Shown: positions 6,820-41,337, numbered from the stretch's first letter. The stretch is 64,000 bases of DNA from an uncultured Opitutales bacterium (GCA_964645585.1 CAZYAN010000003.1:10673-74672), one strand, 5' to 3'. The notes: a model not told the origin generated them from the letters alone. Made by a program: numbers and translations.

Positions 6820-8733
6820 ATGAATATCTGTCTATTTGCGCGTAAATCGCGCGCCATACGTAAAGCGCGAGGAGCCAGAGTGATCGCGGCCCTCGCCCTA
6901 TTCGCTTTTGCCGGTGCGCCGGCTCATGCGCTCTCCGTCAAGGATTTCGGCGCAACTGGCGACGGAAAAACCAATGACGCCAGTGCCTTCCAGGCGGCGA
7001 TCGACGAGGCGGCTTCCAAGCAGACCGTCGTCGAGGTCCCGGCGGGCCGCTACTACATCGGCAGCAATCTCGTCCTCAACAAAAAGGTTGAGATCAAGGG
7101 GCAAGGTCACGAACAGTCGGTGATCACCGGCCGGGGAGGAAAAGCCCGGCTGTTTGTCGAAGCCAGCGGAACGCGTTTCGCCGACCTCGGCTTTGAGGAT
7201 ATGACCGCGCCGATCGCACTGGTCAGCCGTTCGGGCTACACCTTGAAAGACGTCAGCGTTGTCCGCTGCCGCTTCGAGGACATTTATACCCTCGAACAGG
7301 CCCACCAGGGCGTGATCGGGCTCAGCACCTCGAACAAGGGCCAGCGTCAGCACCGGATCGACGACCTGGTGGTGCAGGACTCCATCTTCCGCAATATCGA
7401 GTCCGCGGCCATCAACGTCCGCGGCAACATCTCCCGGTGCCGGATCATCAACAACCAGTTCCTCGACATCGTCAATTCGAGCAAAGACGAAGGCCTGTCC
7501 GGCTGGCAGCTCGGCGGCTACGCCATTCGTCTCGGAGAAAGTTCCGACGACGCGAACATGGAAGAGGAGTTCGCCGATCAAGGCCGCCACCTCATCGAAG
7601 GAAACGTAATCCGAAACCTCCGGAAGACGACCGTGAAGGGAAATCTGAAAGCGATGCTTCTTTACGGAAACTTCATCCAGGTCCGCAACAATCTCTTTGA
7701 AGACCTCGACGGCGGCCCTTCCGGCGACGACGTTAACGCGATGTACTTCCGCGGCGCCTACAACGAAATCAGCGGCAACGTCATTCGTAATGTTCGCGGC
7801 TCCGACGACGACGGCGCCGTCTCCTTCAAGGGCGGGCTCGATCTCGGGAACCAGGGCAGTGTCGTCTTCCACAACTACATCGAAAACGTCGACGGCATGT
7901 CAGCGATCGAGGCGTCCAGCTCGGACATCGAAGTTTATGAGAACGAGGTCGTGAACTCAACCCGCGGATTTTACCAGCGGCACGGCACCAATGCCATTGT
8001 TCGCGACAACATCTTCCGCAACGCCGATACCCAGCTCCGCACCGAAGCCGGGGAAGTCGCGATCCACGGAAACTGGTACATCGATTCGGTCATCTGGCTG
8101 AGCACCCATCGCGGGGAGTCCGTGAATCGCGACGGTGTCTATATCTATGACAACCTCTTCCAGCGCGTCAAAGCTGACGCTTCCCAGATGATCCGCTTCT
8201 CGAACAACCCGGAAGAAAACTTCGTCTCCATTCGGAATAACCGGTTCGAATACACGAATTCCGGCAAGGATGGTGCCGTTGTTGATTTCAGTTCCAATGG
8301 CTCGCTCGATGAAGTGGAAATCATTGATAATCACGTTGAATATAAAGGCTCCGCTTCCTTCAGCTATGATACCGGGTCGGCGAAAAAGACTATTTCCGGG
8401 AACACCTCCAGCAGTAAGGGGTCGTTTTCCGACACTTCCGAATCAAATGAACAAGCGCCCGGCATTCCTCCTTCGATTCCGACCACTCCCGATACACTGG
8501 AGCGGCCGGATGATTTCAGGTTGAGCGCCGCCGCTGCCAATCCATCGATGGAATTGAGCTGGACCGGCCTCGAAGGGCATCTCTACCAGATCCAGTTTTC
8601 CAATGATCTCAAAACTTGGAACAACCACGGCGACCCGATCGCCGGAAATGGAAACGAAATCCGCGTGGAAAACCTTCCCGCCAGCAACGACAAATCGGCC
8701 TTCTACCGTCTCATGATCACCGGTCAGCCGTAA
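6820..8733 (+). CDS. Secreted right-handed beta-helix (pectin lyase-like) protein A with C-terminal W-Y-S-x-DL-x-x-W...FYR module
   Basis: Signal peptide ending AHA|LSV; Pectate_lyase_3-like start SVKDFGATGDGKTNDASAFQAAID..VPAGRY; Asn-ladder repeats; ATG 6820 preferred over TTG 6724. Confidence 0.85.
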   Translation: MNICLFARKSRAIRKARGARVIAALALFAFAGAPAHALSVKDFGATGDGKTNDASAFQAAIDEAASKQTVVEVPAGRYYIGSNLVLNKKVEIKGQGHEQSVITGRGGKARLFVEASGTRFADLGFEDMTAPIALVSRSGYTLKDVSVVRCRFEDIYTLEQAHQGVIGLSTSNKGQRQHRIDDLVVQDSIFRNIESAAINVRGNISRCRIINNQFLDIVNSSKDEGLSGWQLGGYAIRLGESSDDANMEEEFADQGRHLIEGNVIRNLRKTTVKGNLKAMLLYGNFIQVRNNLFEDLDGGPSGDDVNAMYFRGAYNEISGNVIRNVRGSDDDGAVSFKGGLDLGNQGSVVFHNYIENVDGMSAIEASSSDIEVYENEVVNSTRGFYQRHGTNAIVRDNIFRNADTQLRTEAGEVAIHGNWYIDSVIWLSTHRGESVNRDGVYIYDNLFQRVKADASQMIRFSNNPEENFVSIRNNRFEYTNSGKDGAVVDFSSNGSLDEVEIIDNHVEYKGSASFSYDTGSAKKTISGNTSSSKGSFSDTSESNEQAPGIPPSIPTTPDTLERPDDFRLSAAAANPSMELSWTGLEGHLYQIQFSNDLKTWNNHGDPIAGNGNEIRVENLPASNDKSAFYRLMITGQP

Positions 8734-8757
8734 GCGCCAGCCGCGGCGATTCGATCG

Positions 8758-8787
8758 GGTGATCCGACATCGGCCATCACCTTTTTT
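8758..8787 (+). terminator. Probable intrinsic terminator after beta-helix gene A
   Basis: GGTGAT-CCGA-CA-TCGG-cc-ATCACC hairpin followed by TTTTTT. Confidence 0.6.
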
Positions 8788-8909: not shown

Positions 8910-11900
8910 ATGATTATGCTATTTCGATCCGCACAACAGTCGTTCGTCCGCAAAGGCCGGGCGCTCGCTGCCGCCGGGGGACTCGCCCTCACGGGGCTGA
9001 CGGCCGCCTGGTCCAGCGCGCACGCGGCGGAACTCGACCGGACAGGCACCCTCTGGGCGCCCGTCCTTGAATGGAGTTTCGACAATCCTTCCTGGTCGGG
9101 AAATCCGTTTGACCTCGAAGCCACCGCCACTTTCGTCCACACCGAAAGCGGCGAAACCATCAAAACCGGGTTCTTCTACGACGGAGGCAACACCTGGAAA
9201 TTCCGCTTTACCGGAACCCGCGTCGGCACCTGGACGGTCGTAACAAGCAGCAGCGATCCCGACCTCGACGGCAAACAAGGGACCGTCCAGATTAATCCCA
9301 ACCCGGATCCCAATGCCAAGGGTTTCATCGTGGCGTATGGCGACAAGTTTGCAAAGCAAGTCGGCAACGACGGCCGCCTCGAGGGATTCGTACCGAATGT
9401 CTACATGAACTTGCGGAAATACGGCAACCCGGAGAAATGCGGATGGGTCAGCGTGACGCCAACGTACAGCGATCCAGCGGTTTTTTCCGATTACCTCGAT
9501 GAAATCGAGGAGCACGGCTCAAACGCCGCATTCGTTCTGGTCGCGAATCAGTGGTTCCAGGCCGGCGCCGTGTCGTCGAGCGATCACGGCAGCGAGAATC
9601 CGGATCCGAAGACGTTCCGGGCACTCGAGCAAGGAATTCAGATGGCGCACGGCCGCGGCATGCATGTCCACATCTGGGCGTGGGGGGACGAGTCTCGCAA
9701 CTGGACTCCAACCCGCGTCGGCGGCGTCAACGGAACACCCGACCGCCGCGTCCAGCGCTATATTGCCGCCCGGCTCGGACCGCTTCCCGGCTGGACGATG
9801 GGATACGGTTTTGACCTGAGCGAATGGGCCGAGCCCAAGGAAGTCGCCTCCTGGGAAGACTACATCAACGGTCACAGCGGCTGGGAGCACCTGCTGATGG
9901 CGCGCGAAGACGGCAAATTCCCGGACGTAAAAAGTCTCCCCGCCGGCGGTTACGACGACAAGCCGTCGAAGAACTTCTACGACGCCGCGATCAACCTTCT
10001 CGGCAGGGTTAAAAACCGCCCGGCTCAGTTTGAGCGCCGTTTCAGCTACCTGCGCGATGGCGTCTGGACCATGGACAACACCCGCCGCGCCTTCTGGCAA
10101 TTCACCCTCGCCGGCGGCACCGGATCGGTCTGGGGGCTTTATCCGCCGGACTGTTCCGCCTATGTCAAAGGCACCTATCCCGAACCGCACCAGATGCGGA
10201 CTCACCGGGAATTCTGGCGCCACCGTTTTCTGGTCGACATGAAACGCGCCAACAGCCTCAGCGATAATAGCGATGCGATGGTCCTCCGCGATGGCGACCA
10301 CGCTGTCTTCTACCGCGAAAACACCACGTCGATCCACATCGACCTGTCCGGCATGAGCGGCCCCCAGCCGGTCATCGCGGTTGATACGCTGGGCCACTAC
10401 GAGGAGATCCCGGTCGGCACGCTCGATGCACGGGAACATACTTGGACGGCGCCGTATAAATCCGACTGGGCGCTGGCCGTGGGAACGTTCTCTATAGAGA
10501 TCCCTGATCCAACCGAACCGGCGGAACCGGCCAGCCTCACCGCGGTTTCGTTCCCGGAGGAACGGATCGATCTCTCGTGGCAAGCGCCCAATAACGGCGG
10601 CTCGCCGATTACGGGCTACCGAATCCAGCGTAAAGAGGCGGATGCCGGTTCCTTCACCGACCTCGTCGCCAACACGGGAAGCACCAGCACGACCTACACT
10701 GACTCCAGTGTCGCCTTGGGCGTAACCTACGCGTATCGGGTTTCCGCGATCAACGAAATCGGCGAAAGCGGCTTCTCCAACGAATCGCAGGCGACGGCCG
10801 GCGAGATTGACGATTCGATCCCCGATCTCAAGGAATTCGGCGCGGTCGGTGACGGCTCAACCGATGATTCAGCCGCGTTGCGCGAAGCGATCGCCTGGGC
10901 CGGCGCGGAAGGTCTGCCGGTCATGATTCCGGCCGGACGTTTCTTGATCGCCGAGGATATCGCGATCGGCAGCTCCGTGCAATTCATCGGGGTCGGCAAC
11001 GACAAGTCGATCATCACCTCGAACAATGGTTCGGCCAGGCTTTATGTTCGCGAGAGCGGCACAGCCTTCACCGGCATCGGGTTTGAGGATATGATTGAAC
11101 CGATCGTGCTGGAAAGCCGCAGCGGGTATGTGCTGAGCAACGTCACATTTGACGGATGCCGCTTCGAAAACCTCCAGTCCCTGAACCGCAATCGCGGGGT
11201 CATCGGGCTGGTGTCCGGAGGCTCGCCAGACCGGCCGCATCGTATTGAGAATCTCGTTATTCAGAACAGCGTTTTCCGGAATATCGATGCAAGCGCCATC
11301 AATGTTCGCGGCAACATTGGGGCGGCGCAAATCGTGAACAACCAGTTCATTGATCTCGTCAACGATCCCGACAACGCAACGGACGCTGATACGTTCGCCA
11401 TCCGCCTAGGAGATCCGGGCGACGGTTATATGGACGGCCAAGGCGGGCATTTGATTGAGAAGAACCTCATCCGCAATCTCCAAAAGAGCACCGCGGACGG
11501 CAATCTGATCGCGATCCTCCTCTACGGCGATAACTCGATCATCCGCGACAATGTCATCGAGCAGATCGACGGAACCGATGCCGGCGAGGATGTCAGTGCC
11601 ATCTTCATCCGCGGCGCGAACAACGAGATCGCGAACAACACGATCCGCAATGTTCGGGGCACGGCGAGGTTCGGCGCGATTCATCTCGAAGGAGGTATGG
11701 CGACCGCGAGCACGGGCCACCGTATCGCCGGTAACACCATCGAGGATGTTTACGGCAAGGCGGCTATCGAAGCCCGCACGTCCGATCTTGAGGTAACCGG
11801 CAACGAGATCTCCAACGCGGAGGCAGGCGGACTGGTCCATCGCTCCGGCAACGGAATCTCCATCAGCGGCAACACCTTCACCCGTGCCGATGTCACTCTC

Positions 11901-12551
11901 GAAGGCGAAGGCGGGAGTGCGGCGGTTTCCGAAAATGACTTCCTTGAATCGCGAATCACCCTGTCGCAATCCGCGACAAACCCAGCCGACCGCGAGGAAG
12001 TTTCCATCACTGGAAACCTCTTTCGCCGAACCTTGGCTGACACGGCGGTTCCAATGATTCAGCTCACTGGAGACGTCGCCGAACGCGCAGTCACCATCCG
12101 CAACAACCGCTTCGAAAACTTCGTCGAACTCACCGGCAGCGAGACCCTCGTCGACCTTGCCAACGGCGGCGCCGTCGCCCGAGTCGAGATTGTCGACAAC
12201 AAGGTCCAGCAAGCCGGCGAGGAACGGGAGGTCTTCGCGGTCGATTCTCCGGAAGAAGTCATCTCCGGCAACGAGATCACCTTCGGCAGCGAACCGGCCC
12301 CGAATCCGCCATCCGAGACGGGAATCGGTCTGACCCTGACGATGGGAAGCGACGGAGACACACCGTCCCTCGCGTGGAACAGCGAAACCGGCGTCACCTA
12401 CCGCGTCGAAACCTCACCCGATCTCAAATCGTGGGATATACACGGCGATCCGATCACCGGTACCGGCGATCCGATTGTCGTCGACGATCTTCCGGGATCC
12501 GGCGAGAAATCGATGTTCTACCGCGTGATCATTGAAGACGTCGAAGGCTGA
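8910..12551 (+). CDS. Secreted multidomain protein B: DUF5060 + TIM-barrel glycoside-hydrolase-like (DUF4038/GH140-like) + collagen-binding-like + FN3 + beta-helix + C-terminal module
   Basis: Signal peptide (AHA|AE); GNPFD...GFFYDGGNTWKFRF...GTW (DUF5060); RYIAARLG; WTAP..SDWAL; FN3 LSWQAP.NGGSPITGYRI...YAYRVSAINEIGES; then LKEFGAVGDGSTDD beta-helix homologous to A. Confidence 0.8.
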   Translation: MIMLFRSAQQSFVRKGRALAAAGGLALTGLTAAWSSAHAAELDRTGTLWAPVLEWSFDNPSWSGNPFDLEATATFVHTESGETIKTGFFYDGGNTWKFRFTGTRVGTWTVVTSSSDPDLDGKQGTVQINPNPDPNAKGFIVAYGDKFAKQVGNDGRLEGFVPNVYMNLRKYGNPEKCGWVSVTPTYSDPAVFSDYLDEIEEHGSNAAFVLVANQWFQAGAVSSSDHGSENPDPKTFRALEQGIQMAHGRGMHVHIWAWGDESRNWTPTRVGGVNGTPDRRVQRYIAARLGPLPGWTMGYGFDLSEWAEPKEVASWEDYINGHSGWEHLLMAREDGKFPDVKSLPAGGYDDKPSKNFYDAAINLLGRVKNRPAQFERRFSYLRDGVWTMDNTRRAFWQFTLAGGTGSVWGLYPPDCSAYVKGTYPEPHQMRTHREFWRHRFLVDMKRANSLSDNSDAMVLRDGDHAVFYRENTTSIHIDLSGMSGPQPVIAVDTLGHYEEIPVGTLDAREHTWTAPYKSDWALAVGTFSIEIPDPTEPAEPASLTAVSFPEERIDLSWQAPNNGGSPITGYRIQRKEADAGSFTDLVANTGSTSTTYTDSSVALGVTYAYRVSAINEIGESGFSNESQATAGEIDDSIPDLKEFGAVGDGSTDDSAALREAIAWAGAEGLPVMIPAGRFLIAEDIAIGSSVQFIGVGNDKSIITSNNGSARLYVRESGTAFTGIGFEDMIEPIVLESRSGYVLSNVTFDGCRFENLQSLNRNRGVIGLVSGGSPDRPHRIENLVIQNSVFRNIDASAINVRGNIGAAQIVNNQFIDLVNDPDNATDADTFAIRLGDPGDGYMDGQGGHLIEKNLIRNLQKSTADGNLIAILLYGDNSIIRDNVIEQIDGTDAGEDVSAIFIRGANNEIANNTIRNVRGTARFGAIHLEGGMATASTGHRIAGNTIEDVYGKAAIEARTSDLEVTGNEISNAEAGGLVHRSGNGISISGNTFTRADVTLEGEGGSAAVSENDFLESRITLSQSATNPADREEVSITGNLFRRTLADTAVPMIQLTGDVAERAVTIRNNRFENFVELTGSETLVDLANGGAVARVEIVDNKVQQAGEEREVFAVDSPEEVISGNEITFGSEPAPNPPSETGIGLTLTMGSDGDTPSLAWNSETGVTYRVETSPDLKSWDIHGDPITGTGDPIVVDDLPGSGEKSMFYRVIIEDVEG

Positions 12552-12718: not shown

Positions 12719-13672
12719 CTACCGTGTTCCAATGGGCTTCGAACCCTCGGTGCGCGGATCCGCCCGCCACAGTTTACGCGCCCTCTCAGCGAAAAAACTT
12801 ACCGGTGAATATGCGTAACCAAACTTTCGATAGACCACATAATACGCATACAGCCTTATCGGCATCGGAACTCGCCGCACTTTCTTGGCATAGTTCTTCT
12901 CGCACATCAGCCGAATCCCCTCGCGCCGAAAGTAATCCTTTCGCTCCGGCATCAATTCACACATCACATCGATAATTTCCAGCGAATCGTCACACCAGTT
13001 GCAGATGCTGTGCGTTGAACCGAGTTTGGATCCATGGATGCGATACGAGGACTTTGGCTCCTCAATCTCAACCCGGCCGCGCAGGTGCGCGACTCGAATA
13101 TTGGCAATCACGTCCTGAAACGCATAACATCGTGAATGAAATCCGCCAACCCGGCGTAATGTCTCCGTGTGATAGAGCGTGTTGCAAAAATAGGTCACCG
13201 CCTCCCCTCGAATCACGGCATCGAAATATTCGAATAACGTGGAGCGCCCGTGCGGATTCCGCCGGATTTTTATCAAATACCCATCGGTATCGATCTTTCG
13301 CACTCCCGTATGAACCAGCCCGGCCTCCCGCCCGTCCAGCGCGGAAATACATGTCTCGATAAAATCCTCATCCAGAACGTCGTCATCATGAAGCAGAATA
13401 AAGTACGTTCCCCGGGCTTCCCGAATGCAGTATTGAGCATTCTTCTCTGGCGGCAGCGGATCCTCCTGCCGAATATAGCGAAGTCTCGAGTCGTTCAGCG
13501 ACTCGACATAATCGCGCGTTCCGTCTGAAGAACAATTATCCGACACAACAATCTCCAGCCGGGGATAGCTCTGGGCAAGCGCGCTCGCCAGACTCTCACG
13601 CAAGTACGTCGCGGCACGGTTGTAGGTCGGAATCCCGATTGTAACCTCTGGAAGGTTATTCGTTTTGGTCAT
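12719..13672 (-). CDS. Glycosyltransferase family 2
   Basis: VTIGIPTYNR, SALAQSY, VVSDNCSSDGT, LLHDDD. Confidence 0.93.
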   Translation of the reverse strand: MTKTNNLPEVTIGIPTYNRAATYLRESLASALAQSYPRLEIVVSDNCSSDGTRDYVESLNDSRLRYIRQEDPLPPEKNAQYCIREARGTYFILLHDDDVLDEDFIETCISALDGREAGLVHTGVRKIDTDGYLIKIRRNPHGRSTLFEYFDAVIRGEAVTYFCNTLYHTETLRRVGGFHSRCYAFQDVIANIRVAHLRGRVEIEEPKSSYRIHGSKLGSTHSICNWCDDSLEIIDVMCELMPERKDYFRREGIRLMCEKNYAKKVRRVPMPIRLYAYYVVYRKFGYAYSPVSFFAERARKLWRADPRTEGSKPIGTR

Positions 13673-13679
13673 AATAATT

Positions 13680-14381
13680 CTATTGGCCGGATTGAATTAC
13701 GTGCTTTTCACCACAGCCATTGCCACCCGACCCGGACCTTTCTTTCTTTGCCGTCTCCGGCGGAACCGAAACCCAGCCGCCAGCACTCTCATCCCAGCGC
13801 CTGATTACCCGTGCTGGCGATCCGACAGCAATCGAACGGTCGGGCACATCGCGGGTGACAACGCTGTTGGCCCCGACAATCGCCATTTCCCCCACCGACA
13901 CACCGGGCATGATCACGACGTTTTGCCCGATCCAGCTCCCTCGCTTAATAACAATGGGAGCAACTCGGACCATTCCTTGGTATTTGTAGGGCAAATCAAT
14001 TCTCTCGTAGCCGTGGAGCGCATCGGACATGAAAACATTCGACGCAAGCATTACATCATCTTCGATCGTGATTTGCTCGTGCGCTGCAATATGCAACCCC
14101 GCGGTGGCAGATACGCGATTGCCAATGACGATTCGTGAATCAAACCGTTGCTCAATGTGCCGGCCGTCGTCGCGCTTCATCAGCGAGCCCGTGCCCGTGA
14201 TCGACTTAAGCGTGCAGTTCGGACCGAGGTGAACTCCGTCACCGATAAAAATTCTCTTCGGGTTTCGGATCGAGCGGGGATAGTTGATGCTGAGATTGCG
14301 CGGTTTGTTGCCAAAGCGGATCGGCAGGATCCAGCTTTTGATGCGGCGACCGACATACTTTACGGTGCGTAATATGCTCAT
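13680..14381 (-). CDS. Hexapeptide-repeat (LbH) O-acetyltransferase
   Basis: ITIEDDVML, SWIGQNVVIMPGVSVGEMAIVGANSVVTRDVP...VGSPARVIR. Confidence 0.9.
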   Translation of the reverse strand: MSILRTVKYVGRRIKSWILPIRFGNKPRNLSINYPRSIRNPKRIFIGDGVHLGPNCTLKSITGTGSLMKRDDGRHIEQRFDSRIVIGNRVSATAGLHIAAHEQITIEDDVMLASNVFMSDALHGYERIDLPYKYQGMVRVAPIVIKRGSWIGQNVVIMPGVSVGEMAIVGANSVVTRDVPDRSIAVGSPARVIRRWDESAGGWVSVPPETAKKERSGSGGNGCGEKHVIQSGQ

Positions 14382-22357: not shown

Positions 22358-22361
22358 AGGT

Positions 22362-25597: not shown

Positions 25598-25701
25598 TGA
25601 TTGTTCAGGGAATTGATATTGTTGTTTCGCTTCTCTCAGAGAGCTCGTGGCGCGGTAACAACGCCCGCTTCTTCGAAAAAATTTTTGGGTTCCGCCCCCA
25701 A

Positions 25702-32769: not shown

Positions 32770-33926
32770 ACAGCCGCCGCACCCGCCGCGTGTGTTCCAA
32801 AGGCATTTGCCCTCGCCTCTCGCTGGAGCGGGAGACGCGGCAGAGCGTTCTGCCCCAGGCGGACGACGCAGTCACGCGTGCGGGAGAAGGTCATCCCCGG
32901 CTCCCGTGCCAGTCGCCCGAGGAAGCGGTCAAAATTCCCGAACGCATAAAAGCTCTTGGAGTGGGTCAACAGAATGAGCGGCGTCTCCTCGATGCCGCGC
33001 CTTCGTGCCGCCTTGCACGCCGCTCGCGCCATGCGAAGAAGCGTTCGATGATGCATGTATCCAAAACTGCAATACGTCGCGCGCTCCGCGAAAAAGCGGT
33101 CTCGTATCGAACGGCGCCGATCGTCCGCGGGCCGAATCGCCGGTACGAAGGTCCGGGCGCGATCGTGTCGCCGCTTCCGCGCACCCACGGCCAAGTAGTG
33201 CAGAAGTGCTGCCGGTCGATCGCGCAAAAGATGAACCGCGAGCGGCACCCGGCAGGTCTCCGCAAAGGTGGGAATTTCTATAACACCCGTTCCTGGCGAG
33301 CCGGCCTTCGCCACGTCGTCCTCAGCCGTCCACCACGGCAGGAGCCGGTCGGCAGTCTCACGGAAATCGATTTCGCCATGATCGCGGTAAGCAATGTACT
33401 TCCCCGGAACCACGCTGCAGTCCGCGATCAGCCCGGCTCTGCGCATCGCACGAATCAGGGCCCCAGACGGCTGCGCCATCCAGCCCCCGGCGCGAAACGC
33501 CACCGTCTGATAGTCACGGCTAACCGGCTGCAAAAGGTGCTCCAAATAGGTTTTCCCGCGCGCGAGCCAATGATAAATTTCTTCTTCCGGCAGACTGGCC
33601 GCGCTCCATTTGGTATAATCGAGACGCCAGCGGCCTCGTTCGAATGAGCTTCCGATCCATTGCGGGTGGAGGTGCAACTGAACATCGTGCCCCCGCCGAA
33701 CCGCATCGCGAAGGATCTCCTCCCATTCCGCCGCCCACTCACGGTGCCGCGCGTGGCTCGATTCGATCATTGCAAACTGTTGCATGACTTCCGCGAAAAA
33801 CGTGTACCGAGCCCCGTGCCTGTCGCAGACCGCCAGCAGCTTCCGCGCGGGCGCGAACATCAGCTCTACCGGATTGCCCGTGCCGTCACCATTGATCTCC
33901 CAATCGTCGTGCAACAGAATGTTCAA
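32766..33926 (-). CDS. Polysaccharide deacetylase-like (NodB/CE4 fold) protein
   Basis: HDDWE, TFFAE, GHDVQLHLHPQW, AFRAGGW, DCSV, IEIP. TTG start in a TTGA overlap with the upstream stop, behind GGAGG. Confidence 0.78.
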   Translation of the reverse strand: MNILLHDDWEINGDGTGNPVELMFAPARKLLAVCDRHGARYTFFAEVMQQFAMIESSHARHREWAAEWEEILRDAVRRGHDVQLHLHPQWIGSSFERGRWRLDYTKWSAASLPEEEIYHWLARGKTYLEHLLQPVSRDYQTVAFRAGGWMAQPSGALIRAMRRAGLIADCSVVPGKYIAYRDHGEIDFRETADRLLPWWTAEDDVAKAGSPGTGVIEIPTFAETCRVPLAVHLLRDRPAALLHYLAVGARKRRHDRARTFVPAIRPADDRRRSIRDRFFAERATYCSFGYMHHRTLLRMARAACKAARRRGIEETPLILLTHSKSFYAFGNFDRFLGRLAREPGMTFSRTRDCVVRLGQNALPRLPLQREARANAFGTHAAGAAAV

Positions 33927-35086
33927 ACGCCTCCTCCCCCGCTGGAGACCGCTTCCGGCGCTGCCTCGGTGAATTTGCGCAGCCAAGTTTCCCCCTCGGC
34001 CTCATCGCCCGAGGATTCTCCAACCTTTTGCCAGATTCCTCGCAAACGCGCCGCAACTCGGTTCGCTGCAAAATGGGTTTGCGCATAATCGACATTGTAA
34101 GCACCGATCTTCTTGCGCAGGCCCGGGTCAGCAACCAGTCGCTCCAGCGCGGACGCCAATGCGTTCGGATCCGGCGACAGCAGCCAGTAACCCATCTTCC
34201 CGTTTTCGAAAAACTCGGGAAGCCCGCCCACAGGTGTGGTAATGACCGGAAGACCAAATGCCATCGCTTCAAGAACCGAGTTTGGCATCCCCTCGCCGTG
34301 AGTTGACGGAAAGACATAAACGTCCGCCTGCCGGAAAGCCTCTATCTTTTCACCGCCGACACGATAGCCAAGAAACTCCACATGCGGCACACCGCCCCTC
34401 CGGACAATATCCCGCGCGCCCTCGGATTCTCCCCCTTCACCGACCACGAGCAATCGCGTCAATGCCCCTCCCCGAAGCAGTTGTTCGTGAGCTTCGATCG
34501 CAGTATAAATGCCTTTGTCACGTTCCAGTCGGGCAAGAAAGAGGATGTTGCAACGATCTCGATCTCGCTGCTTCGGCCTCCGCGCGGCATTGACCAAATC
34601 GGATCCAACCGTGGTCGTCTCAACCCAAATCGGTCCTCGGAATCCCCACCTGCGGATGCGCTCCTTAAACTCACTCGAAAGGACAATCATTCCGTCGGCT
34701 CGGCCAAAAATCCGATAGAAAACTCCCCGCCAATGGCGGTCGATGGCACCCGCTGCTTTCTCGCTCCATCCCCGAAAGAAAACCACAACCTTCTTCCTCC
34801 GCCATTTCGCCATCAGGAGAAGAAGTCCGTCGCGCATCAGCCCGGATGCGCCGAGCGAAGGGTTCAGGTTCACGAGATCACAATCCCGGGATTCCCGCCA
34901 GAATCGGAAAGAGTCCGTTACAAGGCGAAACAGATCATCCAAAACCGATTGCCTTCCCTCACGCTTTCCAATCGTGAAGTAGTGTACATTCTCGCCTAGA
35001 TGCGGACGCAACGCCTTGTAATAATGCGCGATGCCGCCGTAGCGTTTGCGGCGCTCAAAATCCTTTAAGGTAACCAGGACCTTCAT
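33923..35086 (-). CDS. Glycosyltransferase family 4
   Basis: ILFLARLERDKGI, DVYVFPSTHGEGMPNSVLEAMAFGLPVITTPVGG. Confidence 0.93.
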   Translation of the reverse strand: MKVLVTLKDFERRKRYGGIAHYYKALRPHLGENVHYFTIGKREGRQSVLDDLFRLVTDSFRFWRESRDCDLVNLNPSLGASGLMRDGLLLLMAKWRRKKVVVFFRGWSEKAAGAIDRHWRGVFYRIFGRADGMIVLSSEFKERIRRWGFRGPIWVETTTVGSDLVNAARRPKQRDRDRCNILFLARLERDKGIYTAIEAHEQLLRGGALTRLLVVGEGGESEGARDIVRRGGVPHVEFLGYRVGGEKIEAFRQADVYVFPSTHGEGMPNSVLEAMAFGLPVITTPVGGLPEFFENGKMGYWLLSPDPNALASALERLVADPGLRKKIGAYNVDYAQTHFAANRVAARLRGIWQKVGESSGDEAEGETWLRKFTEAAPEAVSSGGGGV

Positions 35087-35987
35087 TCGTCGTCACTGCA
35101 GTCGATTGGCTCTCGCCATAGCCGAAGGCCGTCCGTGCTCGAGCCGTCATTAAACTCACGAGCCGTCGCTCCCATGGCCGCAATGTCTTGATCCCGCTCG
35201 ACGCCCGGGCGGGATCGACGCCGCGCACACTAATGCCGGTGTGACTGGATTCTTTTCCCGAAGCGCTGAGCATCGCATCTTCGAAGGGCAGTTCACAAAA
35301 CTCGCACACTCGCCGCACGGCTTCCACCGGCGAGTGGACCAAATCTTCGTACCGAACCACCAGTATCGGGTAGCGTTTCTTATATTGAAAGATCGCTCTC
35401 GCCGTGCGCCTGAACTCAAAGAGGAAGAAGAGCAGGATCACCAAATGAATACCTGGCGCGAGAACCGGATGGTCAGCTTTTCGTCCGCGCGTGCCGGGGC
35501 TCTTCAATTTCGACGCGCACATGGCAAATGGATCGCGGACAAGAAAAATACACTTCGCGTCAGGGTACCGTTCAATCACATCTGAAAAATGCCGGAAATG
35601 CGCAAAATTCTTAGCCCCGGCCCGCTCCTTCCCCTGCGTTCGCCGTGTAAACTCCAGAAAGGCATCTACCACACCCCACGCGGTTGCTTCTGTCGTCCGT
35701 ACTTGATCGAAGATTGCTTCCAGCGGCATTTTTTCACGATCAAAGTAGCGCCAGAATGCTCCATAGGCTTCGCACGCATACAGGGCCTCAAGGCCGGACC
35801 GCAACCCGCTGTCCGTTGTGAGATCGTACTTCGCCAGCACGTCGAACAATGTCCGCTGCCATGGATTCAGCACAACCATCTCATCAACGGTCATCGCCAC
35901 CCGCGAGTGCAAGTTGAGCATATTCCGCAACAGGGTGGATCCTGTACGGTGCTGACAGAAAACAAAAATTGGTGACTTCCCGCTCAC
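35055..35987 (-). CDS. PAPS-dependent sulfotransferase (Sulfotransfer_3-like)
   Basis: 5'-PSB motif CQHRTGSTLL, 3'-PB motif LVRDPFAMCAS, VRYEDLV; GTG start in a GTGA overlap with the wzy stop. Confidence 0.87.
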   Translation of the reverse strand: MSGKSPIFVFCQHRTGSTLLRNMLNLHSRVAMTVDEMVVLNPWQRTLFDVLAKYDLTTDSGLRSGLEALYACEAYGAFWRYFDREKMPLEAIFDQVRTTEATAWGVVDAFLEFTRRTQGKERAGAKNFAHFRHFSDVIERYPDAKCIFLVRDPFAMCASKLKSPGTRGRKADHPVLAPGIHLVILLFFLFEFRRTARAIFQYKKRYPILVVRYEDLVHSPVEAVRRVCEFCELPFEDAMLSASGKESSHTGISVRGVDPARASSGIKTLRPWERRLVSLMTARARTAFGYGESQSTAVTTNEGPGYLKGF

Positions 35988-37243
35988 ACCAGGGATCGTT
36001 GAAGTTCTTGTTTCTTTTGATGCTCCGGGGCATCCCCGACGTCTTCCTCCTGAATTTCGTCCGAGGGTACCGCCAGCTCCTCGATCGAAGCGAGCAATGC
36101 TCCCCATAGTGAAAAGACGAGAGAAAGCGAGGACACCACGTAATACTGACCGGAGAACGAAATAATAATATAGGCTGCAATAAGCCCGATAAAAACACCT
36201 GTAAATTCCCGGGCTAAGGCCGCCCGCCTGACACATCGAAGCCGTCTCCAGTAATCCAGCCAAAGCGCGGGAATGATCGAAAAGTATAGCAGGAATCCAA
36301 TCAGTCCCGCGCTCAGAAGATAAGCGGCATAATCCGTATGAAGGTCCCGAAAATCGCGCGTAACAGAGACGTAGTTGAAGAGCTCTCTTCCGAATAGAAC
36401 TTCTTTAAGCTCCCCGTATCGAACCAGCTCAATTCCATTGATCATCTCCTGAACCCGCCCAATCTGATCCGGGGTATCGGTTTCTCGCATACGATCTTCC
36501 AAAACGCCGTACACGTGATGAATGTAAAGTGGAAGTGTGGCAGCCGCCAGAAGTGCAGCGACCCCGATCGCCCCGAAAACACGCGTCTTTTTAGGCGTGA
36601 ACACCGTATAAATGACCAAACCGGCGAGAAGACCTAAAAGAGCACCTCGACGGCCGATCAGAGCCAGCGGAAAAAGAGCGAATAACATGATTGTCGCCTC
36701 CCACCAGCGGATTCGAAAGGGTTCGTTTCGGTAAAATCCGACGAGCGGAGAAAAGATCAGCAGGTAGGCAATCAAGTAGGTCTGCTGCACATTCCCCGCC
36801 CCAGCTTTGAGACCCTCCTCGTAATAAGGGTTTATCCCGATTCCGAAGATCTGAGCGATGATAAAGTTGATAAAGAACAGTGCGAGGCAGATCGAAACCA
36901 GCTTTGACAGTTTCCTTCTCGCAGCTTCTCCGCGAATATAGTTGTACGCCATCACAAACATCAGCAGACTGATGGCGACTTTCGCGACAACATCGAAGGT
37001 CTTTACGGGTGCCGACGAGAAGGGAACCAGGCAGATTAAATAAACCAGACAAGCGAAAATAGCCGCGGCGGTCCATGTCAGCCGCACTCCGTCGATCATC
37101 AGCAGCGGAATCATTAACGCCATGAGCGCGGCACGCATGATACCAATGTGCAGGTAGTCTGACGTAAAAAAACCCGCCGTCAAAGATACGAGAACATTTA
37201 TTAGTATGATGAACAGGACAATATCCGCTCGCTTGAAGATCAT
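35984..37243 (-). CDS. Wzy-type polymerase / O-antigen ligase family membrane protein
   Basis: About 10-12 TM segments; GRRGALLG, periplasmic loop with GR and LHTDY...GLIG (Wzy_C-like). Confidence 0.78.
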   Translation of the reverse strand: MIFKRADIVLFIILINVLVSLTAGFFTSDYLHIGIMRAALMALMIPLLMIDGVRLTWTAAAIFACLVYLICLVPFSSAPVKTFDVVAKVAISLLMFVMAYNYIRGEAARRKLSKLVSICLALFFINFIIAQIFGIGINPYYEEGLKAGAGNVQQTYLIAYLLIFSPLVGFYRNEPFRIRWWEATIMLFALFPLALIGRRGALLGLLAGLVIYTVFTPKKTRVFGAIGVAALLAAATLPLYIHHVYGVLEDRMRETDTPDQIGRVQEMINGIELVRYGELKEVLFGRELFNYVSVTRDFRDLHTDYAAYLLSAGLIGFLLYFSIIPALWLDYWRRLRCVRRAALAREFTGVFIGLIAAYIIISFSGQYYVVSSLSLVFSLWGALLASIEELAVPSDEIQEEDVGDAPEHQKKQELQRSLV

Positions 37244-38586
37244 TTGGATTCCTCCAGCCTTTCGGCTTGTCTCGCCCCGAGAACAGGCTTGGGTTTACTC
37301 AATCCGCCATCGATCGTATCTGCGGGTCGCCTGATGCGCGAGTAAAGCGAACGGTAAGCTAAATCTATACGATCGCCTGAAAACTTTTCCATAACGCGCT
37401 CGCGAGCGGCCCGTCCGGCCTCCCCAGGAGCATTTCGCTCGATAACGACCGCCCGGAGAAGGCCCGCCGCCAGGACGTCGGCATCCGCCTCCCGCACGAT
37501 GTATCCGGTTTCACCATCTTCAATAATCGCTTCGGTGATTCCGTCGATTGCAAGCGCCACCGGCGGAATCCCTGATGCCATCGCTTCAACAAGTACGTTC
37601 GGGAATCCTTCCTGACGGGACGGAAGAACAAAGAGATCAGCAGCCTGCATATACTCGCTCACGTTCATTCGCCAACCGGGATAAAACAGACGTCCGGCCA
37701 AACTCGTTTCCCGTTCCATCCCCCGGATTTCTTGTTCCCACCTTGCACCTTCATCGCTCTTGTGGGCCGGGCCAACGATCACCAGTCCTATGCGTGAATC
37801 GAGCCCAGCGAGTTTGCGAAAGGCAGGCAGTAAAAGGTCGATGCCTTTTCGCCGCAAAATACCTCCGACAAACAGGATCAACATCAAATCCTCCGGCAAA
37901 CCAAGTTCCCTCCGGCGTTGTTGCTTTCCTTCCGGACCGGCCGGAGAAAATCTTTCCGTGTCGACAGCCCGGGGAATGACGGCCAGCTTCTCGGCTGGAA
38001 TCCCGGAGCGAAGACAGACGCGTTCAAGTGCGGGCGAGAGACAGACGATCGCATCGGCCATCCGGAATTGAAGCATTTTGCGATGATGGAGAATTCGGGC
38101 GCGGTTGTGCGTGACCGAGCCGGGACAATCCCCTCCCAGGAGAGTGATCTCGACAATCAGCTTTTTTCTTAACGCCTTCGCCGCCAGCCCGGCGAAAAGG
38201 GAAAGCCAGGTCGGTGAAAAGCAATGAACAATGGAAAAATTTCGCCGAGTTCGGAAAAGCGTCCAAAAGGTGCGCACACAGCGAATGGTGTTTTCGGCAA
38301 GTAGACGAATGCCGGTTTTGATTCTTCCGGTTCCGCCGAATCCGACATGGACCGTGCTCTTCTGAATAACGTCCATGAGTTCCGCATCGCCGAGATTCCA
38401 GTCCGCCGCTGGCTGGGGTGCTGCTGTCAAAAGAAATGCCAGCTGTCCCTCCCGGTCTAGGCGCTGTGCGTATTTTAAAGCTGAATATCCGGCCCCGGAA
38501 TGGGCAGGCGGAATCATCGATGCCACAACCACCACGCGGTTCGAACAATCTTCGCTGGAATCCGCGGACACGGGAGATTTTTCCAA
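37240..38586 (-). CDS. Glycosyltransferase family 4
   Basis: ILFVGGILRRKGID, ADLFVLPSRQEGFPNVLVEAMASG. Confidence 0.93.
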   Translation of the reverse strand: MEKSPVSADSSEDCSNRVVVVASMIPPAHSGAGYSALKYAQRLDREGQLAFLLTAAPQPAADWNLGDAELMDVIQKSTVHVGFGGTGRIKTGIRLLAENTIRCVRTFWTLFRTRRNFSIVHCFSPTWLSLFAGLAAKALRKKLIVEITLLGGDCPGSVTHNRARILHHRKMLQFRMADAIVCLSPALERVCLRSGIPAEKLAVIPRAVDTERFSPAGPEGKQQRRRELGLPEDLMLILFVGGILRRKGIDLLLPAFRKLAGLDSRIGLVIVGPAHKSDEGARWEQEIRGMERETSLAGRLFYPGWRMNVSEYMQAADLFVLPSRQEGFPNVLVEAMASGIPPVALAIDGITEAIIEDGETGYIVREADADVLAAGLLRAVVIERNAPGEAGRAARERVMEKFSGDRIDLAYRSLYSRIRRPADTIDGGLSKPKPVLGARQAERLEESK

Positions 38587-38639: not shown

Positions 38640-39491
38640 TCAGAACTGGCTCGCCTGCCCCGAAGGAACGGGTTCCAGCAGCGGCGCCTTCAATGCCGCT
38701 TTGGCACGGCTCAGCGCCACGGCATCATCATACAAAACGCGATCTCGCGCGCAGATGCGCAGGATCTCCTCGCGAATCTCCGGAGTAACCAGCTTCTCCC
38801 GCTCCTGCCGGGAAACTGGGCTGCGATTCCTCTGGCCAATCGCAATCTTCAAGCCGGCCTGGATCTCGAGCTGCCGCGCAAGGTTCGCTGTATCTTCAAT
38901 TACCCCGCATATTGAGAATTTCCTTAAATTCTCCCGCGCTCGATCAAAAGCTTCGTCACTGCTATAACAGCCATCCTCGCGAACACCGCCCAGAAACCGG
39001 ACGTAATCAACGCCCAGTCGGCGGCCTTCCGGACTGCGAACGTACGCATCCAGGCTGTCTTGGATCTTCCATGGCGAGTCATCGTCCTTCCGGCTGTTGA
39101 AAAAATAGCTCGATAGAAAGCGCGACACCGGATCGCGAAGAACCGTCATAAACAGGTACCGCTCCCGGTGCCGGTTGTACGCGCGTTCCGAGAAGGCGTA
39201 ATGTCCGCTTACAAAACCTTGGCCTTTTTCTAGTTCATACAGAAGAAGTTCTTCGCGAAAGCGCAGGACCGCGGCATAGTCATCCGCAAACGGATCGTCG
39301 AAGCCATGAATGATCCGCGCCGCATCGAGGGATGCCCGGGCGTTGAGGCGTGAATAGGAGATCAGGTACTTTCGACGGATCGCCTGATTGATCGAGACGC
39401 CGCCGCACTTCGCGATGTGAATGAAGCAGAGCCGCGCCGCCGGTTCGATCAATCCAGCGGACATGCCTTTGAGTTTGCGAAAAATCGTCAT
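38640..39491 (-). CDS. Sulfotransferase family 2 (HS2ST/CHST-like)
   Basis: FIHIAKCGGVSI, FVSGH, TVLRDPVSRFLSSY, DRVLY. Confidence 0.85.
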   Translation of the reverse strand: MTIFRKLKGMSAGLIEPAARLCFIHIAKCGGVSINQAIRRKYLISYSRLNARASLDAARIIHGFDDPFADDYAAVLRFREELLLYELEKGQGFVSGHYAFSERAYNRHRERYLFMTVLRDPVSRFLSSYFFNSRKDDDSPWKIQDSLDAYVRSPEGRRLGVDYVRFLGGVREDGCYSSDEAFDRARENLRKFSICGVIEDTANLARQLEIQAGLKIAIGQRNRSPVSRQEREKLVTPEIREEILRICARDRVLYDDAVALSRAKAALKAPLLEPVPSGQASQF

Positions 39492-39513
39492 GATTATTTG
39501 CGGGGTTTTCCGT

Positions 39514-41337
39514 TCAGCGAGCGTTGACCATCGAGCTGAACGAACCATTCATTTCGAGCAGTTGATCATAGATGCCTTCCTCGACGACATGTCCTTCCTC
39601 CACGACAAAAATCCGGTCGCATGCCTCGACGGTTTTCAACCGGTGGGCGATCAGAATTACCGTTTTCGTCAAAGCGCTGCCATGGATAGCTTCCATCACT
39701 CGGTTCTCAGTCAATTCATCAAGAGCACTGGTCGCCTCGTCGAAGATGAGAACTTCCGGATCATGATAGAGTGCCCGTGCGATCCCAAGCCGTTGACGCT
39801 GGCCGCCGCTCAATCGAACTCCGCGCTCGCCGGCAACCGTCTCATATCCATTTAGCGTCTCGTTTTGAATGAAGTCGTGAATCTGCGCCGCCTTTGCCGC
39901 ACGAACGACCGCATCCATATCGATTTCGCTGGCCGGCAAGCCAAAGGCGATGTTCTCCGCAATGGATGTATCCGACAGGAAAATATGTTGCGGAACGTAG
40001 CCAATCTTTCGGCGCCAAGCGGAGAGGTTCTGTTCATCGAGCCGAACTCCGTCGATCAGAATCTGTCCCTCCCGCGGAAAGAACAAGCCGAGCAAAAGAT
40101 CGACAATCGTGCTCTTCCCCGAACCCGTGGGGCCGCAAAATGCCACCACACTGCGACACGGAATCGTAAAACTAATAGCACAGGCCGCGGGACGATCCCC
40201 GCCTGGATAGACAAATGTCACATTCTCGAATTGAATCTCTCGTTCGAACGCCAACGGCACTTCGTCTTTCGTTTCTTTCCGCGACGGAGTCAGTTGTTGC
40301 GGAGAACTTTCAGCAATGTTCTTGGCGTCACGGTGAAGGTCCGCCACCAGCGTCTGGTGGAAACGCAATGTCGCAAGCGAGGCGAAACAATGTTGAAGAG
40401 CCGGCATCAAGCGGTACCCGGCAAACGCATACATACTGAGTACGGGAATGACGCGCGAGAATTGATCCCGCGTGAACACAAGGTAAAGCACCAAGACAAC
40501 CAGCCCGCCAAACGCCAGCAGCTCCAGGAGGTAACGCGGCAGCCCTTTAATCAGCATCGCCGTGACCATGTATCGACTGAACCGCCGCGTCGGCCGGTCG
40601 TACTCCTCAACAAAGAAGCCTTCGCGTTCAAAGGTCTTCATTTCCTTGAACGCGCCAAACCCTTCCTGGACGGCTTTGAATCGAAGCTTGTTGGCACCGT
40701 TCCGTTTCTCGCCGATTACCGCCAGACGCGAACGAAGCGTCACGTAAATCACACTGTAAGTGCCGCCGAGAAGAAGAGTCGATACAATCGCTGTCTTCCA
40801 ATCGACGACGACGATCAGGATTAGCAGACAGATTGCCGTTGTCCCTTTGACCAGCAGTTCGACGAGCGGCTGAAGGAAATGCTTGGTAAACCGCTCGACC
40901 TCGCTGAGGATATTTTTGCCCGCGTCAGCACTCCCGTGAGCGACAAACCACAGATACGGACGGGCGAGATACTTCGTCAGGAGTTTGCGCGAAAGCATCG
41001 AATTGACTTCCCAAATGAACCGGCTGCTCAGCCAGACGCCCAGGGCGGAAGATGCGTTCGTCGCGACGAGGGCAAGGAGAACAATTGCTCCCAGAAGAAC
41101 AAGGAAGCCTTTCTCCTCGAGTCCAGAGGCATTGTACACCCATTGAAGATAGACATTGCGGTCGATCATCCCCGGGTCGGCCACAACGGCCATGAAAGGC
41201 ATGATCGAGGTGACGGCCCCCATTTGCATCAGCCCGATCCAGAGCATCACACCGATCAGCACAAGCGCCCGGCGGCGTTGCGAACGCGTCAGAAGGTCAT
41301 ATACTTGAAGAAGTGTCGCGTGCATAGATTTCAGCAA
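39514..41337 (-). CDS. ABC exporter, PglK/Wzk-like lipid-linked glycan flippase (TMD-NBD fusion)
   Basis: TM domain with YRLMPA; GPTGSGKST, LSGGQRQRLGIARALY, LIFDEATSALD, IAHRL. Confidence 0.88.
   Translation of the reverse strand: MLKSMHATLLQVYDLLTRSQRRRALVLIGVMLWIGLMQMGAVTSIMPFMAVVADPGMIDRNVYLQWVYNASGLEEKGFLVLLGAIVLLALVATNASSALGVWLSSRFIWEVNSMLSRKLLTKYLARPYLWFVAHGSADAGKNILSEVERFTKHFLQPLVELLVKGTTAICLLILIVVVDWKTAIVSTLLLGGTYSVIYVTLRSRLAVIGEKRNGANKLRFKAVQEGFGAFKEMKTFEREGFFVEEYDRPTRRFSRYMVTAMLIKGLPRYLLELLAFGGLVVLVLYLVFTRDQFSRVIPVLSMYAFAGYRLMPALQHCFASLATLRFHQTLVADLHRDAKNIAESSPQQLTPSRKETKDEVPLAFEREIQFENVTFVYPGGDRPAACAISFTIPCRSVVAFCGPTGSGKSTIVDLLLGLFFPREGQILIDGVRLDEQNLSAWRRKIGYVPQHIFLSDTSIAENIAFGLPASEIDMDAVVRAAKAAQIHDFIQNETLNGYETVAGERGVRLSGGQRQRLGIARALYHDPEVLIFDEATSALDELTENRVMEAIHGSALTKTVILIAHRLKTVEACDRIFVVEEGHVVEEGIYDQLLEMNGSFSSMVNAR

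Follow-up and report, generated by a model that had tools for sequence, protein, structure and literature searches.

Gene content of the polysaccharide locus

The stretch of DNA analysed here, in the following called the window, covers 64,000 nucleotides (G000:C3:10673-74672) of the genome of an uncultured Opitutales bacterium (G000; 3.9 Mb, 97.4% complete). At positions 6820-41337 it harbours a putative surface polysaccharide locus, in which open reading frame (ORF) calling together with Pfam and NCBIfam searches identified 24 genes. A single array on the minus strand (12719-41337) comprises 22 of these genes, with intergenic gaps of -280 to +102 bp, and is separated from proS by an upstream gap of 539 bp. 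The two remaining genes encode beta-helix proteins and are located on the plus strand, divergent from the array and adjoining asd. An earlier sequence-only reading of this DNA had listed Wbp-like enzymes, two sulfotransferases, an O-acetyltransferase, Wzy, Wzc and ABC exporter genes, four beta-helix paralogs and a kinase-nucleotidyltransferase fusion, and all of these were found in place.

Four genes similar to the wbp genes of Pseudomonas aeruginosa are colinear on the minus strand at 21212-25789. The first (21212..22357) encodes a WbpE-like DegT aminotransferase (PF01041, E 1.6e-116), for which P. aeruginosa WbpE (3nyu, E 3.3e-82) is the second PDB match after a scyllo-inositol transaminase. 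The second (22362..23120) encodes a WbpD/WlbB-like hexapeptide (LbH) N-acetyltransferase, with PDB entry 3mqg, which we take to be WlbB, as best match (E 1.7e-64). The third product, a GFO/IDH/MocA oxidoreductase (23127..24266; PF01408, E 4.4e-20), is WbpB-like at the family level; its nearest NCBIfam model is the archaeal UDP-N-acetylglucosamine (UDP-GlcNAc) 3-dehydrogenase (E 1.1e-38; 133.5 bits, below the cut-off of 450). The fourth is a WbpA-like UDP-N-acetylhexosamine (UDP-HexNAc) 6-dehydrogenase (24188..25789), which passes TIGR03026 (393.5 bits, cut-off 189.8) and stays below the cut-offs of the UDP-N-acetylmannosamine (UDP-ManNAc) dehydrogenase and TviB equivalog models. Its family match is split between residues 65-173 and 216-518. 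The protein therefore carries an insertion of about 40 residues in the NAD-binding domain as well as an over-long ORF start; the true start is probably near residue 65.

The same four-gene block was found, colinear and with 60-72% identity, in a metagenome locus (L112), which also carries a UDP-GlcNAc 2-epimerase gene. Because of this conservation and the PDB matches of the WbpD- and WbpE-like proteins, a 2,3-diacetamido-uronic acid is a well-founded inference for the product of the cassette. The block unites the four enzyme classes of P. aeruginosa WbpA/B/E/D(/I) and Bordetella WlbA-D, which make UDP-GlcNAc3NAcA and UDP-ManNAc3NAcA. In contrast to these systems, no close relationship of the oxidoreductase to WbpB/WlbA was detectable and no WbpI-like UDP-GlcNAc 2-epimerase is encoded in the locus (the sole Epimerase_2 gene of G000 is on another contig). 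Moreover, the setting is a Wzc-containing exopolysaccharide (EPS) locus with sulfotransferases and not an O-antigen locus. A literature search for diacetamido sugars in Verrucomicrobia found nothing relevant. Separately, a single in-frame TGA codon was seen in a WbpD-like homolog of a draft relative (G011:C479:12943-13617) and another in a beta-helix homolog of a second draft relative (G001:C91:792-1823); such codons may reflect errors in sequencing, pseudogenes or recoding.

Sulfation and acetylation are represented by three genes of the array. A Sulfotransfer_3 protein (35055..36263; PF13469, E 2.5e-25; 90.4 bits, cut-off 27; residues 98-329) probably starts downstream of the overlap with wzy, and a Sulfotransfer_2 protein (38640..39548; PF03567, E 2.6e-5; 24.9 bits, cut-off 22) has a 68% identical ortholog in G002, a related genome with a homologous locus on contig C2. 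The Sulfotransfer_3 protein contains the stretches HRTGST and RDP, and KCGGVS and RDPVSR are also visible in the sulfotransferase sequences; presumably these are the 5'-phosphosulfate-binding (5'-PSB) and 3'-phosphate-binding (3'-PB) motifs for 3'-phosphoadenosine-5'-phosphosulfate (PAPS). The G000 genome contains a gene for adenosine-5'-phosphosulfate (APS) kinase, so that PAPS can be made. The hexapeptide O-acetyltransferase (13680..14381) is WbbJ/WcaF-like (NCBIfam WbbJ, E 4.3e-28, below the curated cut-off) and is 60% identical to its ortholog in G002.

Genes for Wzy-dependent assembly lie in the same array. They encode an initiating polyprenyl-phosphate sugar-phosphate transferase (Bac_transf, 28627..29850; PF02397, E 8.5e-21), a Wzy-type polymerase (Wzy_C, 35984..37243; PF04932, E 3e-9; 37.3 bits, cut-off 31.7) and a Wzc-type chain-length regulator and tyrosine autokinase (19001..21181) with Wzz, GNVR and P-loop domains, a score of 115.5 bits for TIGR01007 (cut-off 108) and a Tyr-rich C-terminal tail. 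A Wzx flippase of the Polysacc_synt families was not detected in the locus by Pfam. Instead, a PglK/MsbA-like ABC exporter (39514..41337; NCBIfam PglK, E 2.6e-96; 323 bits, below the cut-off of 1000) is the candidate flippase of the lipid-linked repeat unit, and in the corresponding part of the G002 locus a Wzx-type Polysacc_synt_3 gene is present. The synthesis of a sulfated, N-acetylated amino-uronic polymer, as the sequence-only reading had proposed, is well supported by this gene content.

Clusters with in-cluster sulfotransferases have been described for the sulfated EPS synechan of Synechocystis (xss; PMC8205485) and, as a putative sulfated glycosaminoglycan-like cluster, for Pontiella of the Verrucomicrobiota (PMC7356697). 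Like these, the locus studied here, known from its genes alone, combines polysaccharide assembly genes with sulfotransferases, and beyond them it adds the Wbp-type cassette, four beta-helix paralogs and the kinase/nucleotidyltransferase fusion. A literature search for Opitutales EPS clusters with sulfotransferases found nothing relevant.

Further genes of the array, again on the minus strand, encode transferases and small or orphan proteins. These are a GT2 glycosyltransferase (12719..13672; PF00535, E 1.6e-27), two GT4 glycosyltransferases (33923..35086 and 37240..38586; PF00534, E 1.5e-33 and 9.8e-32, respectively) and a DUF354 protein (30365..31483; PF04007, E 1.1e-7), which is 57% identical to its counterpart in G002 and 47% to that in L112. 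Judged by its Pfam clan the DUF354 protein is presumably GT-B-like; a PDB sequence search gave no meaningful match. A small VanZ-like membrane protein (29901..30278; PF04892, E 2.7e-6, below the cut-off) is kept in G002. The 283-aa orphan protein at 14415..15266 belongs to no known family, having no Pfam or NCBIfam match, and no counterpart of it was found in G002:C2.

Outside the locus, the window encodes at 1758-5060 (plus strand) an 1100-aa protein with NAGPA (phosphodiester glycosidase), Big_2 and calcineurin-like phosphoesterase domains, downstream of Na/Pi cotransporter and PhoU genes. Another NAGPA protein is encoded on the G002 contig (42868-43815). At the other side, an ExoD-family gene (45938-46804) and a gene for a sulfatase similar to N-sulfoglucosamine sulfohydrolase (50409-51953), both on the minus strand, lie 5-10 kb past the locus, with proS, P-type ATPase and succinate dehydrogenase genes in between.

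Four beta-helix proteins

The four beta-helix proteins are true paralogs (41-48% identity, E 1e-133 to 1e-151) and all start with a signal-peptide-like hydrophobic N-terminus. Protein 1 (6820..8733, plus strand; PF12708, E 1.5e-14) is 41-43% identical to the other three; its ORF opens at 6724, and the likely start is Met33 at 6820. Protein 2 (8910..12551, plus strand; 1213 aa) is a composite of DUF5060 (E 1.4e-11), a weak apiosidase-like module similar to glycoside hydrolase family 140 (GH140; Apiosidase E 4e-4, below the cut-off), fn3 (E 3.9e-10) and the paralogous beta-helix at residues 640-1210 (Beta_helix, E 3e-11). Its residues 56-145 match the 'putative glycoside hydrolase' 4n0r in the PDB (E 2.3e-10). 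Protein 3 (15263..17200, minus strand; PF12708 and PF13229) is 48% identical to protein 4 (17197..19047, minus strand), and the genes of both lie inside the minus-strand operon, between the acetyltransferase gene and wzc.

The family is very narrow and rare. In the G000 genome only the four copies of the locus exist. The family was present in two of 60 relatives (G001 and G002), and at E ≤ 1e-30 no copy was found in 400 further genomes of the phylum. Among 5.8 billion clusters, 23 proteins beyond the query's own cluster matched at E ≤ 1e-5, 18 of them at E ≤ 1e-82. In all four contexts with readable neighbours (the window, G002, L111 and L112) the family is located inside a homologous polysaccharide locus. 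Of the two G002 copies, one adjoins wzc and the other lies towards the left end of the locus; protein 1 is 49% identical to the product of G002 5207-7135. In L112 a copy follows immediately after the wbp cassette. In L111 the copy adjoins asd as it does in the window, is 53% identical to protein 1, and is followed 8 kb on by a PglK-like ABC gene.

Beside the left-hand beta-helix gene, G002 (C2:8050-13428; 1792 aa) and L111 (7561-14649; 2362 aa) encode giant secreted proteins, which combine a SASA carbohydrate acetylesterase domain with Big_1/invasin Ig-like domains. In G000 this place is occupied by protein 2.

To look at the fold we used an AlphaFold model of protein 4 (mean predicted local distance difference test score, pLDDT, 87.6), which is a right-handed parallel beta-helix. 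Structural comparison (VIA) matched it with the tailspike of cyanophage Pam1 (Z 32.3, root-mean-square deviation (rmsd) 3.7 A), the C5-epimerases AlgE6 and AlgE4 (Z 29.9 and 29.8, rmsd 2.1 and 2.0 A over 321 and 316 residues, respectively), a colanidase tailspike (Z 28.5, rmsd 2.6 A), the Vibrio polysaccharide (VPS) lyase RbmB of V. cholerae (Z 28.4, rmsd 2.2 A) and WceF (Z 24.3, rmsd 2.4 A). WceF of Pantoea has been described as a hydrolase of stewartan whose gene is part of the EPS cluster (PMC7949094). RbmB is described as a lyase with a Lys base and an Arg-rich cleft, whose substrate contains an N-acetyl amino-uronic residue (PMC12993940).

The linkage of the family to the locus and its fold were established here, and together they suggest the activity. 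Most likely, by analogy with RbmB and WceF, the paralogs would be depolymerases, either lyases or hydrolases, that set the chain length or release cells. As in the RbmB, WceF and AlgE systems, a right-handed beta-helix protein is encoded together with EPS biosynthesis genes; what differs here is the number of paralogs (four), the glycoside-hydrolase-like module attached to one of them, the narrowness of the family and a sequence similarity that is limited to the N-terminal cap. The sequence-only reading had presented in-locus remodelling as part of a system not yet described, but the arrangement is already known from WceF, RbmB and AlgE. Its proposal of extracellular remodelling stands as an association, i.e. 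a locus-only family with the fold of EPS enzymes, the activity itself being predicted.

The nucleotidyltransferase-kinase fusion and neighbouring genes

Between the Wbp-like cassette and the Bac_transf gene, the minus strand encodes a 940-aa fusion protein (25702..28524) that by its Pfam and PDB matches combines a GlmU-like nucleoside triphosphate (NTP) transferase with a GHMP anomeric sugar kinase resembling N-acetylgalactosamine (GalNAc) kinase and galactokinase. The NTP_transferase domain spans residues 49-205 and contains the GRGSR motif; the kinase spans residues 447-917 (GHMP_kinases_N 552-640, GHMP_kinases_C 857-917) and includes GRINLMGRH at residue 464. The phosphate-binding motif of the kinase is intact (residues 582-591), with P582 and A584-S591 invariant in the family alignment. 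The galactokinase signature PF10509 (GalKase_gal_bdg) was recognised with 46.2 bits (cut-off 23.1), and the galactokinase equivalog TIGR00131 scored below its cut-off (148.9 against 226.65 bits). The best PDB relatives are human GalNAc kinase (2a2c, E 3.4e-27), galactokinases and GlmU chains (about 1e-10), and no Fkp chain was among the 33 PDB sequences that matched at E ≤ 0.001. Because the kinase is GalNAc-kinase/galactokinase-like and the transferase GlmU-like, a product of the UDP-HexNAc type would be expected and not GDP-fucose.

Known enzymes offer two parallels. Fkp of Bacteroides is an L-fucokinase/GDP-fucose pyrophosphorylase that serves in salvage (PMC11982464, PMC6468028) and shares with the fusion the domain order (nucleotidyltransferase first, GHMP kinase at the C-terminus), the length of about 940-950 aa and the salvage logic; the likeness is architectural and not at the sequence level. 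NahK together with GlmU or AGX1 provides a two-enzyme route from a free amino sugar to the UDP-amino-sugar (PMC6264712). The predicted order of an anomeric kinase followed by a uridylyltransferase would be the same here as in the NahK/GlmU route, but the two are joined in a single chain, whose kinase is GHMP-type and differs in type from both NahK and AmgK. In Pseudomonas, AmgK and MurU form a two-enzyme amino-sugar salvage pathway of the same logic. Literature searches found nothing relevant on a natural HexNAc-kinase/uridyltransferase fusion, and did not find the term 'AbGHMP' (PDB 9ulx).

The fusion family is large. At E ≤ 1e-10 the fusion was matched by 498 proteins; the 120 listed are about 900 aa long, and several carry the Joint Genome Institute (JGI) name 'N-acetylgalactosamine kinase'. 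Searching species-representative genomes with the family alignment A1 yielded 561 relatives (a scan with the single fusion sequence found none), most of them in Planctomycetota and others in Kuenenia, Hydrogenedentota, Calditrichota, Nitrospirales and an Aquicultor record. Among the best 80 of these 561 loci, the EPS genes of the window surround the fusion only in L021, which is G002. In the other 79, all outside Opitutales, they are absent, and no conserved neighbour was detected there, the largest neighbour cluster being found in 7 of 79. The copies of G000 and G002 are 47-55% identical to those of Planctomycetota and 31-44% to other Verrucomicrobiota copies, which suggests transfer of the fusion between phyla.

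Within the phylum, 22 of the 400 sampled Verrucomicrobiota genomes carry the fusion, and none of these 22 has the beta-helix family. Nineteen of these loci have readable neighbours and show a mostly housekeeping context; a polysaccharide gene lies within three genes of the fusion in 3 of the 19. In four (L119, L124, L125 and L126), cell-wall or division genes are found within the same distance, namely FtsW/RodA, D-Ala-D-Ala ligase (Ddl), Mur ligase and FtsZ/FtsA, and these neighbours hint at a role of the wider family in cell-envelope amino-sugar metabolism. Closer to home, the fusion is present in 6 of 60 relatives. Seven of nine Opitutales contexts contain polysaccharide genes: the window itself, the homologous locus G002:C2, G001:C50 with a WbpD-like gene at 2.5 kb, G009:C169 with the fusion flanked by Wza and Wzc, G011:C144 with Wzy, Wzx and DegT, G026:C141 with a nucleotide-sugar dehydrogenase and Wzy, and G004:C371 with a WbpB-like gene. 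The remaining two, G009:C55 and G011:C157, are without such a gene. The sequence-only reading had expected both families to accompany loci of this kind: for the beta-helix family this was observed in four out of four contexts, while the fusion occurs independently, an outcome that this reading had itself named as evidence against it. The Opitutales contexts speak in favour of the sequence-only reading, and the variable context elsewhere against its salvage loop.

We also considered the fusion as a housekeeping stand-in for an absent GlmU. A canonical bifunctional GlmU was not detected in G000 or in 30 relatives (at E ≤ 1e-30 only paralogs of the fusion were recovered in these 31 genomes), and the best TIGR01173 match in G000 is the N-terminal domain of the fusion itself (69 bits). 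This idea was rejected, as the fusion is limited to 6 of 60 relatives and G000 has a eukaryote-type UDPGP-family gene (C1:124254-125180), which may be the housekeeping UDP-GlcNAc pyrophosphorylase. As a side observation, a different fusion of 402 aa, joining IspD (2-C-methyl-D-erythritol 4-phosphate (MEP) cytidylyltransferase) and RpiB (ribose-5-phosphate isomerase B), is encoded at G000:C4:84285-85493 (L113:1286-2494).

Two further proteins of the array may bear on sugar processing in the cytoplasm. The first (31480..32769, minus strand; 429 aa) has no Pfam match and no signal peptide (judged by eye and a hydrophobicity window), and is modelled as an (alpha/alpha)6 barrel (pLDDT 92.8). Its family, large and uncharacterised, counts 2403 cluster representatives at E ≤ 0.001 and has D60, Y218, H288, H345 and R402 as invariant residues. 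In VIA, GH76 mannanases and cellobiose 2-epimerases are tied at Z 31.9, and GH88/GH105 enzymes and N-acylglucosamine 2-epimerases follow at Z of about 25-28.4. A relation to heparosan-type glucuronyl C5-epimerases, suggested by one ESM Atlas cluster, is not claimed; no such chain was among the 50 best VIA matches or the Foldseek matches listed. The second protein (32766..33986, minus strand; 406 aa) is a possible NodB-like deacetylase. The deacetylase of the sequence-only reading agrees with the resemblance of this protein to NodB-homology clusters in the language-model-based ESM Atlas (score 0.98), but in Pfam Polysacc_deac_1 (PF01522) was reached only at E 0.15 (12.5 bits, cut-off 23.1). No counterpart was found in G002:C2, and PDB sequence searches with the two proteins gave no meaningful match.

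A comparison of the homologous loci indicates that these modules are separable. G002 keeps the beta-helix genes, the O-acetyltransferase, Wzc, the fusion, Bac_transf, the VanZ-like protein, DUF354, the (alpha/alpha)6 protein, GT4, Wzy, Sulfotransfer_2 and the second GT4. It is without the wbp cassette, the NodB-like gene and Sulfotransfer_3, and a WbpD-like gene was not found anywhere in this 87%-complete genome. In L112, Bac_transf is directly followed by wbpA, with no fusion in between and no (alpha/alpha)6 gene. Thus G002 carries the fusion and beta-helix genes without wbp, and L112 wbp and beta-helix genes without the fusion, so the fusion is neither tied to the diacetamido-uronic cassette nor required where the cassette and beta-helix genes occur together. 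DUF354, the (alpha/alpha)6 protein and the fusion were also rejected as one conserved unit for release, epimerisation and re-activation: L112 has DUF354 without the other two, and the other Opitutales fusion loci have no match to DUF354 or the (alpha/alpha)6 protein.

Interpretation of the locus

We consider it reasonably probable that the region is a Wzy-dependent capsule or EPS locus for a sulfated, O-acetylated amino-uronic heteropolymer, with secreted glycan-active enzymes encoded in the locus and the fusion as an accessory. Based on what is known of the protein families, the Bac_transf enzyme would start the repeat unit on undecaprenyl phosphate, and the GT2, GT4 and possibly DUF354 enzymes would elongate it. 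One of its sugars would be a 2,3-diacetamido-2,3-dideoxy-hexuronic acid provided by the WbpA/B/D/E-like cassette. O-acetyl groups would be added to the unit, and the two PAPS-type sulfotransferases would sulfate it at the cytoplasmic face, before the PglK-like ABC exporter flips it, Wzy polymerises it and Wzc governs length and export. Outside the cytoplasm, the four beta-helix paralogs may then act on the finished polymer. The fusion would convert a free sugar of the N-acetylhexosamine type into the UDP-sugar, first phosphorylating the anomeric position and then transferring a uridylyl group, and the resulting UDP-HexNAc could feed the transferases of the locus and enter the Wbp cassette as substrate. 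While the domain identity and the distribution of the fusion were observed directly, its substrate is predicted: most likely it supplies a UDP-HexNAc precursor from free sugar, and re-activation of the finished sulfated di-N-acetyl-uronic monomer appears less likely.

Several points weigh against this interpretation. We infer the sugar identities, the site of sulfation and the very existence of the polymer from genes. The WbpA- and WbpB-like proteins clear family or subfamily thresholds only, and for the oxidoreductase no WbpB/WlbA chain was found in the PDB at E ≤ 1e-10. There is no Wza gene in the locus (two Wza-type Poly_export genes are located elsewhere in the G000 genome), and signal peptides were judged by eye and a hydrophobicity window alone. 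In four Opitutales contexts wbp-like genes adjoin the fusion, which leaves room for a specific link to the diacetamido-uronic pathway. Furthermore, the lowest rmsd values of the protein 4 model (2.0-2.1 A) belong to C5-epimerases. The sequence or profile similarity of the beta-helix family to solved PDB structures ends after the N-terminal cap, and lyase, hydrolase and epimerase are therefore not distinguishable for it.

These last points lead to the first alternative, in which the beta-helix proteins would be secreted polymer-level C5-epimerases, or epimerase/lyases, that edit the amino-uronic residues rather than cut the chain. The A-modules of AlgE6 and AlgE4 are near the top of the structural matches and are also among the top Foldseek matches, the predicted polymer contains a uronic acid, and a secreted family of several paralogs parallels AlgE1-7. 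Azotobacter has seven such paralogous AlgE enzymes. However, alignment did not bring out a catalytic motif of the AlgE type, the structural scores of tailspike depolymerases and of the lyase RbmB are as good as those of the epimerases, and the fusion of protein 2 to a glycoside-hydrolase-like module suits degradation. We therefore regard an epimerase function as unlikely, with a small but real chance of being right.

The second alternative is a closed loop: fragments cleaved from the cell's own polymer by the beta-helix enzymes would be taken up, and the fusion, together with the (alpha/alpha)6 and NodB-like proteins, would turn them back into nucleotide sugars for resynthesis. In its favour, an anomeric kinase needs a free sugar to act on. 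The (alpha/alpha)6 protein, which has no signal peptide, matches GH88/GH105 unsaturated uronyl hydrolases (Z 26.6-28.4), a class that processes lyase products, and 11-49% of the members of its ESM Atlas clusters are annotated as GH88. In addition, the fusion, DUF354 and (alpha/alpha)6 genes have been kept together in G000 and G002, and the adjacency to wbp-like genes in Opitutales would fit as well. Against this, Pfam and NCBIfam scans of the locus genes revealed no importer, the kinase resembles GalNAc kinase and galactokinase and not any uronate kinase, and the (alpha/alpha)6 fold ties equally between GH76 enzymes and 2-epimerases. The (alpha/alpha)6 and NodB-like proteins are the sole support for an intracellular dismantling step, and are ambiguous. 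The dedicated monomer-salvage loop of the sequence-only reading is disfavoured because the modules separate in G002 and L112 and because the locus encodes no importer, and finds no support in the fusion family, since this is widespread and mostly outside EPS loci. We give the closed loop a slim chance. The same slim chance applies to its formulation as a turnover circuit, in which beta-helix lyases would free unsaturated oligosaccharides, GH88/GH105-like and NodB-like enzymes would dismantle them, and the fusion would recharge the N-acetylhexosamine to its UDP form.

It is very improbable that the beta-helix proteins serve nutrition on foreign (for example algal) glycans and that their genes lie beside the locus by chance. 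Opitutales and other bacteria of the Planctomycetes-Verrucomicrobia-Chlamydiae (PVC) group are described as polysaccharide degraders (PMC7356697, PMC6388578), protein 2 carries the GH140-like/DUF5060 module, and the sulfatase gene at 50409-51953 is 9 kb away. Yet the family holds its place in the homologous biosynthesis loci of G002, L111 and L112, two copies are within the biosynthetic operon, no copy exists elsewhere in the genome, and the adjacent genes do not include the transporters, regulators or sulfatases that characterise utilisation loci. Least probable of all is a lipopolysaccharide O-antigen or a protein-linked glycan as the product: the exporter is nearest to PglK, a flippase of protein glycosylation, the Wzy_C family also includes O-antigen ligases, Wza is missing from the locus, and the sugars made by WbpABDE are classically found in O-antigens of Pseudomonas and Bordetella, but a full Wzc tyrosine autokinase with its Tyr-rich tail is part of the operon, the homologous fusion of G009 lies between Wza and Wzc, and Pfam detected no PglB-like oligosaccharyltransferase gene in the locus.

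Few bacterial EPS are sulfated, and those that are attract interest as biomaterials and in relation to the marine carbon cycle; few genetic blueprints for them exist, for example synechan and the putative Pontiella cluster. Read as a capsule or EPS locus, the region provides a testable blueprint from Opitutales that joins a diacetamido-uronic pathway to two sulfotransferases. It also draws attention to three uncharacterised families, i.e. the narrow, locus-tied beta-helix family, the widespread (alpha/alpha)6 family and the fusion of about 900 aa. If the turnover circuit were true, the fusion family would be a previously unrecognised one-protein form of amino-sugar salvage, analogous to AmgK/MurU or Fkp. 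Present in hundreds of species of Planctomycetota and Verrucomicrobiota, the fusion could be a one-protein route from a free amino sugar to the UDP-sugar.

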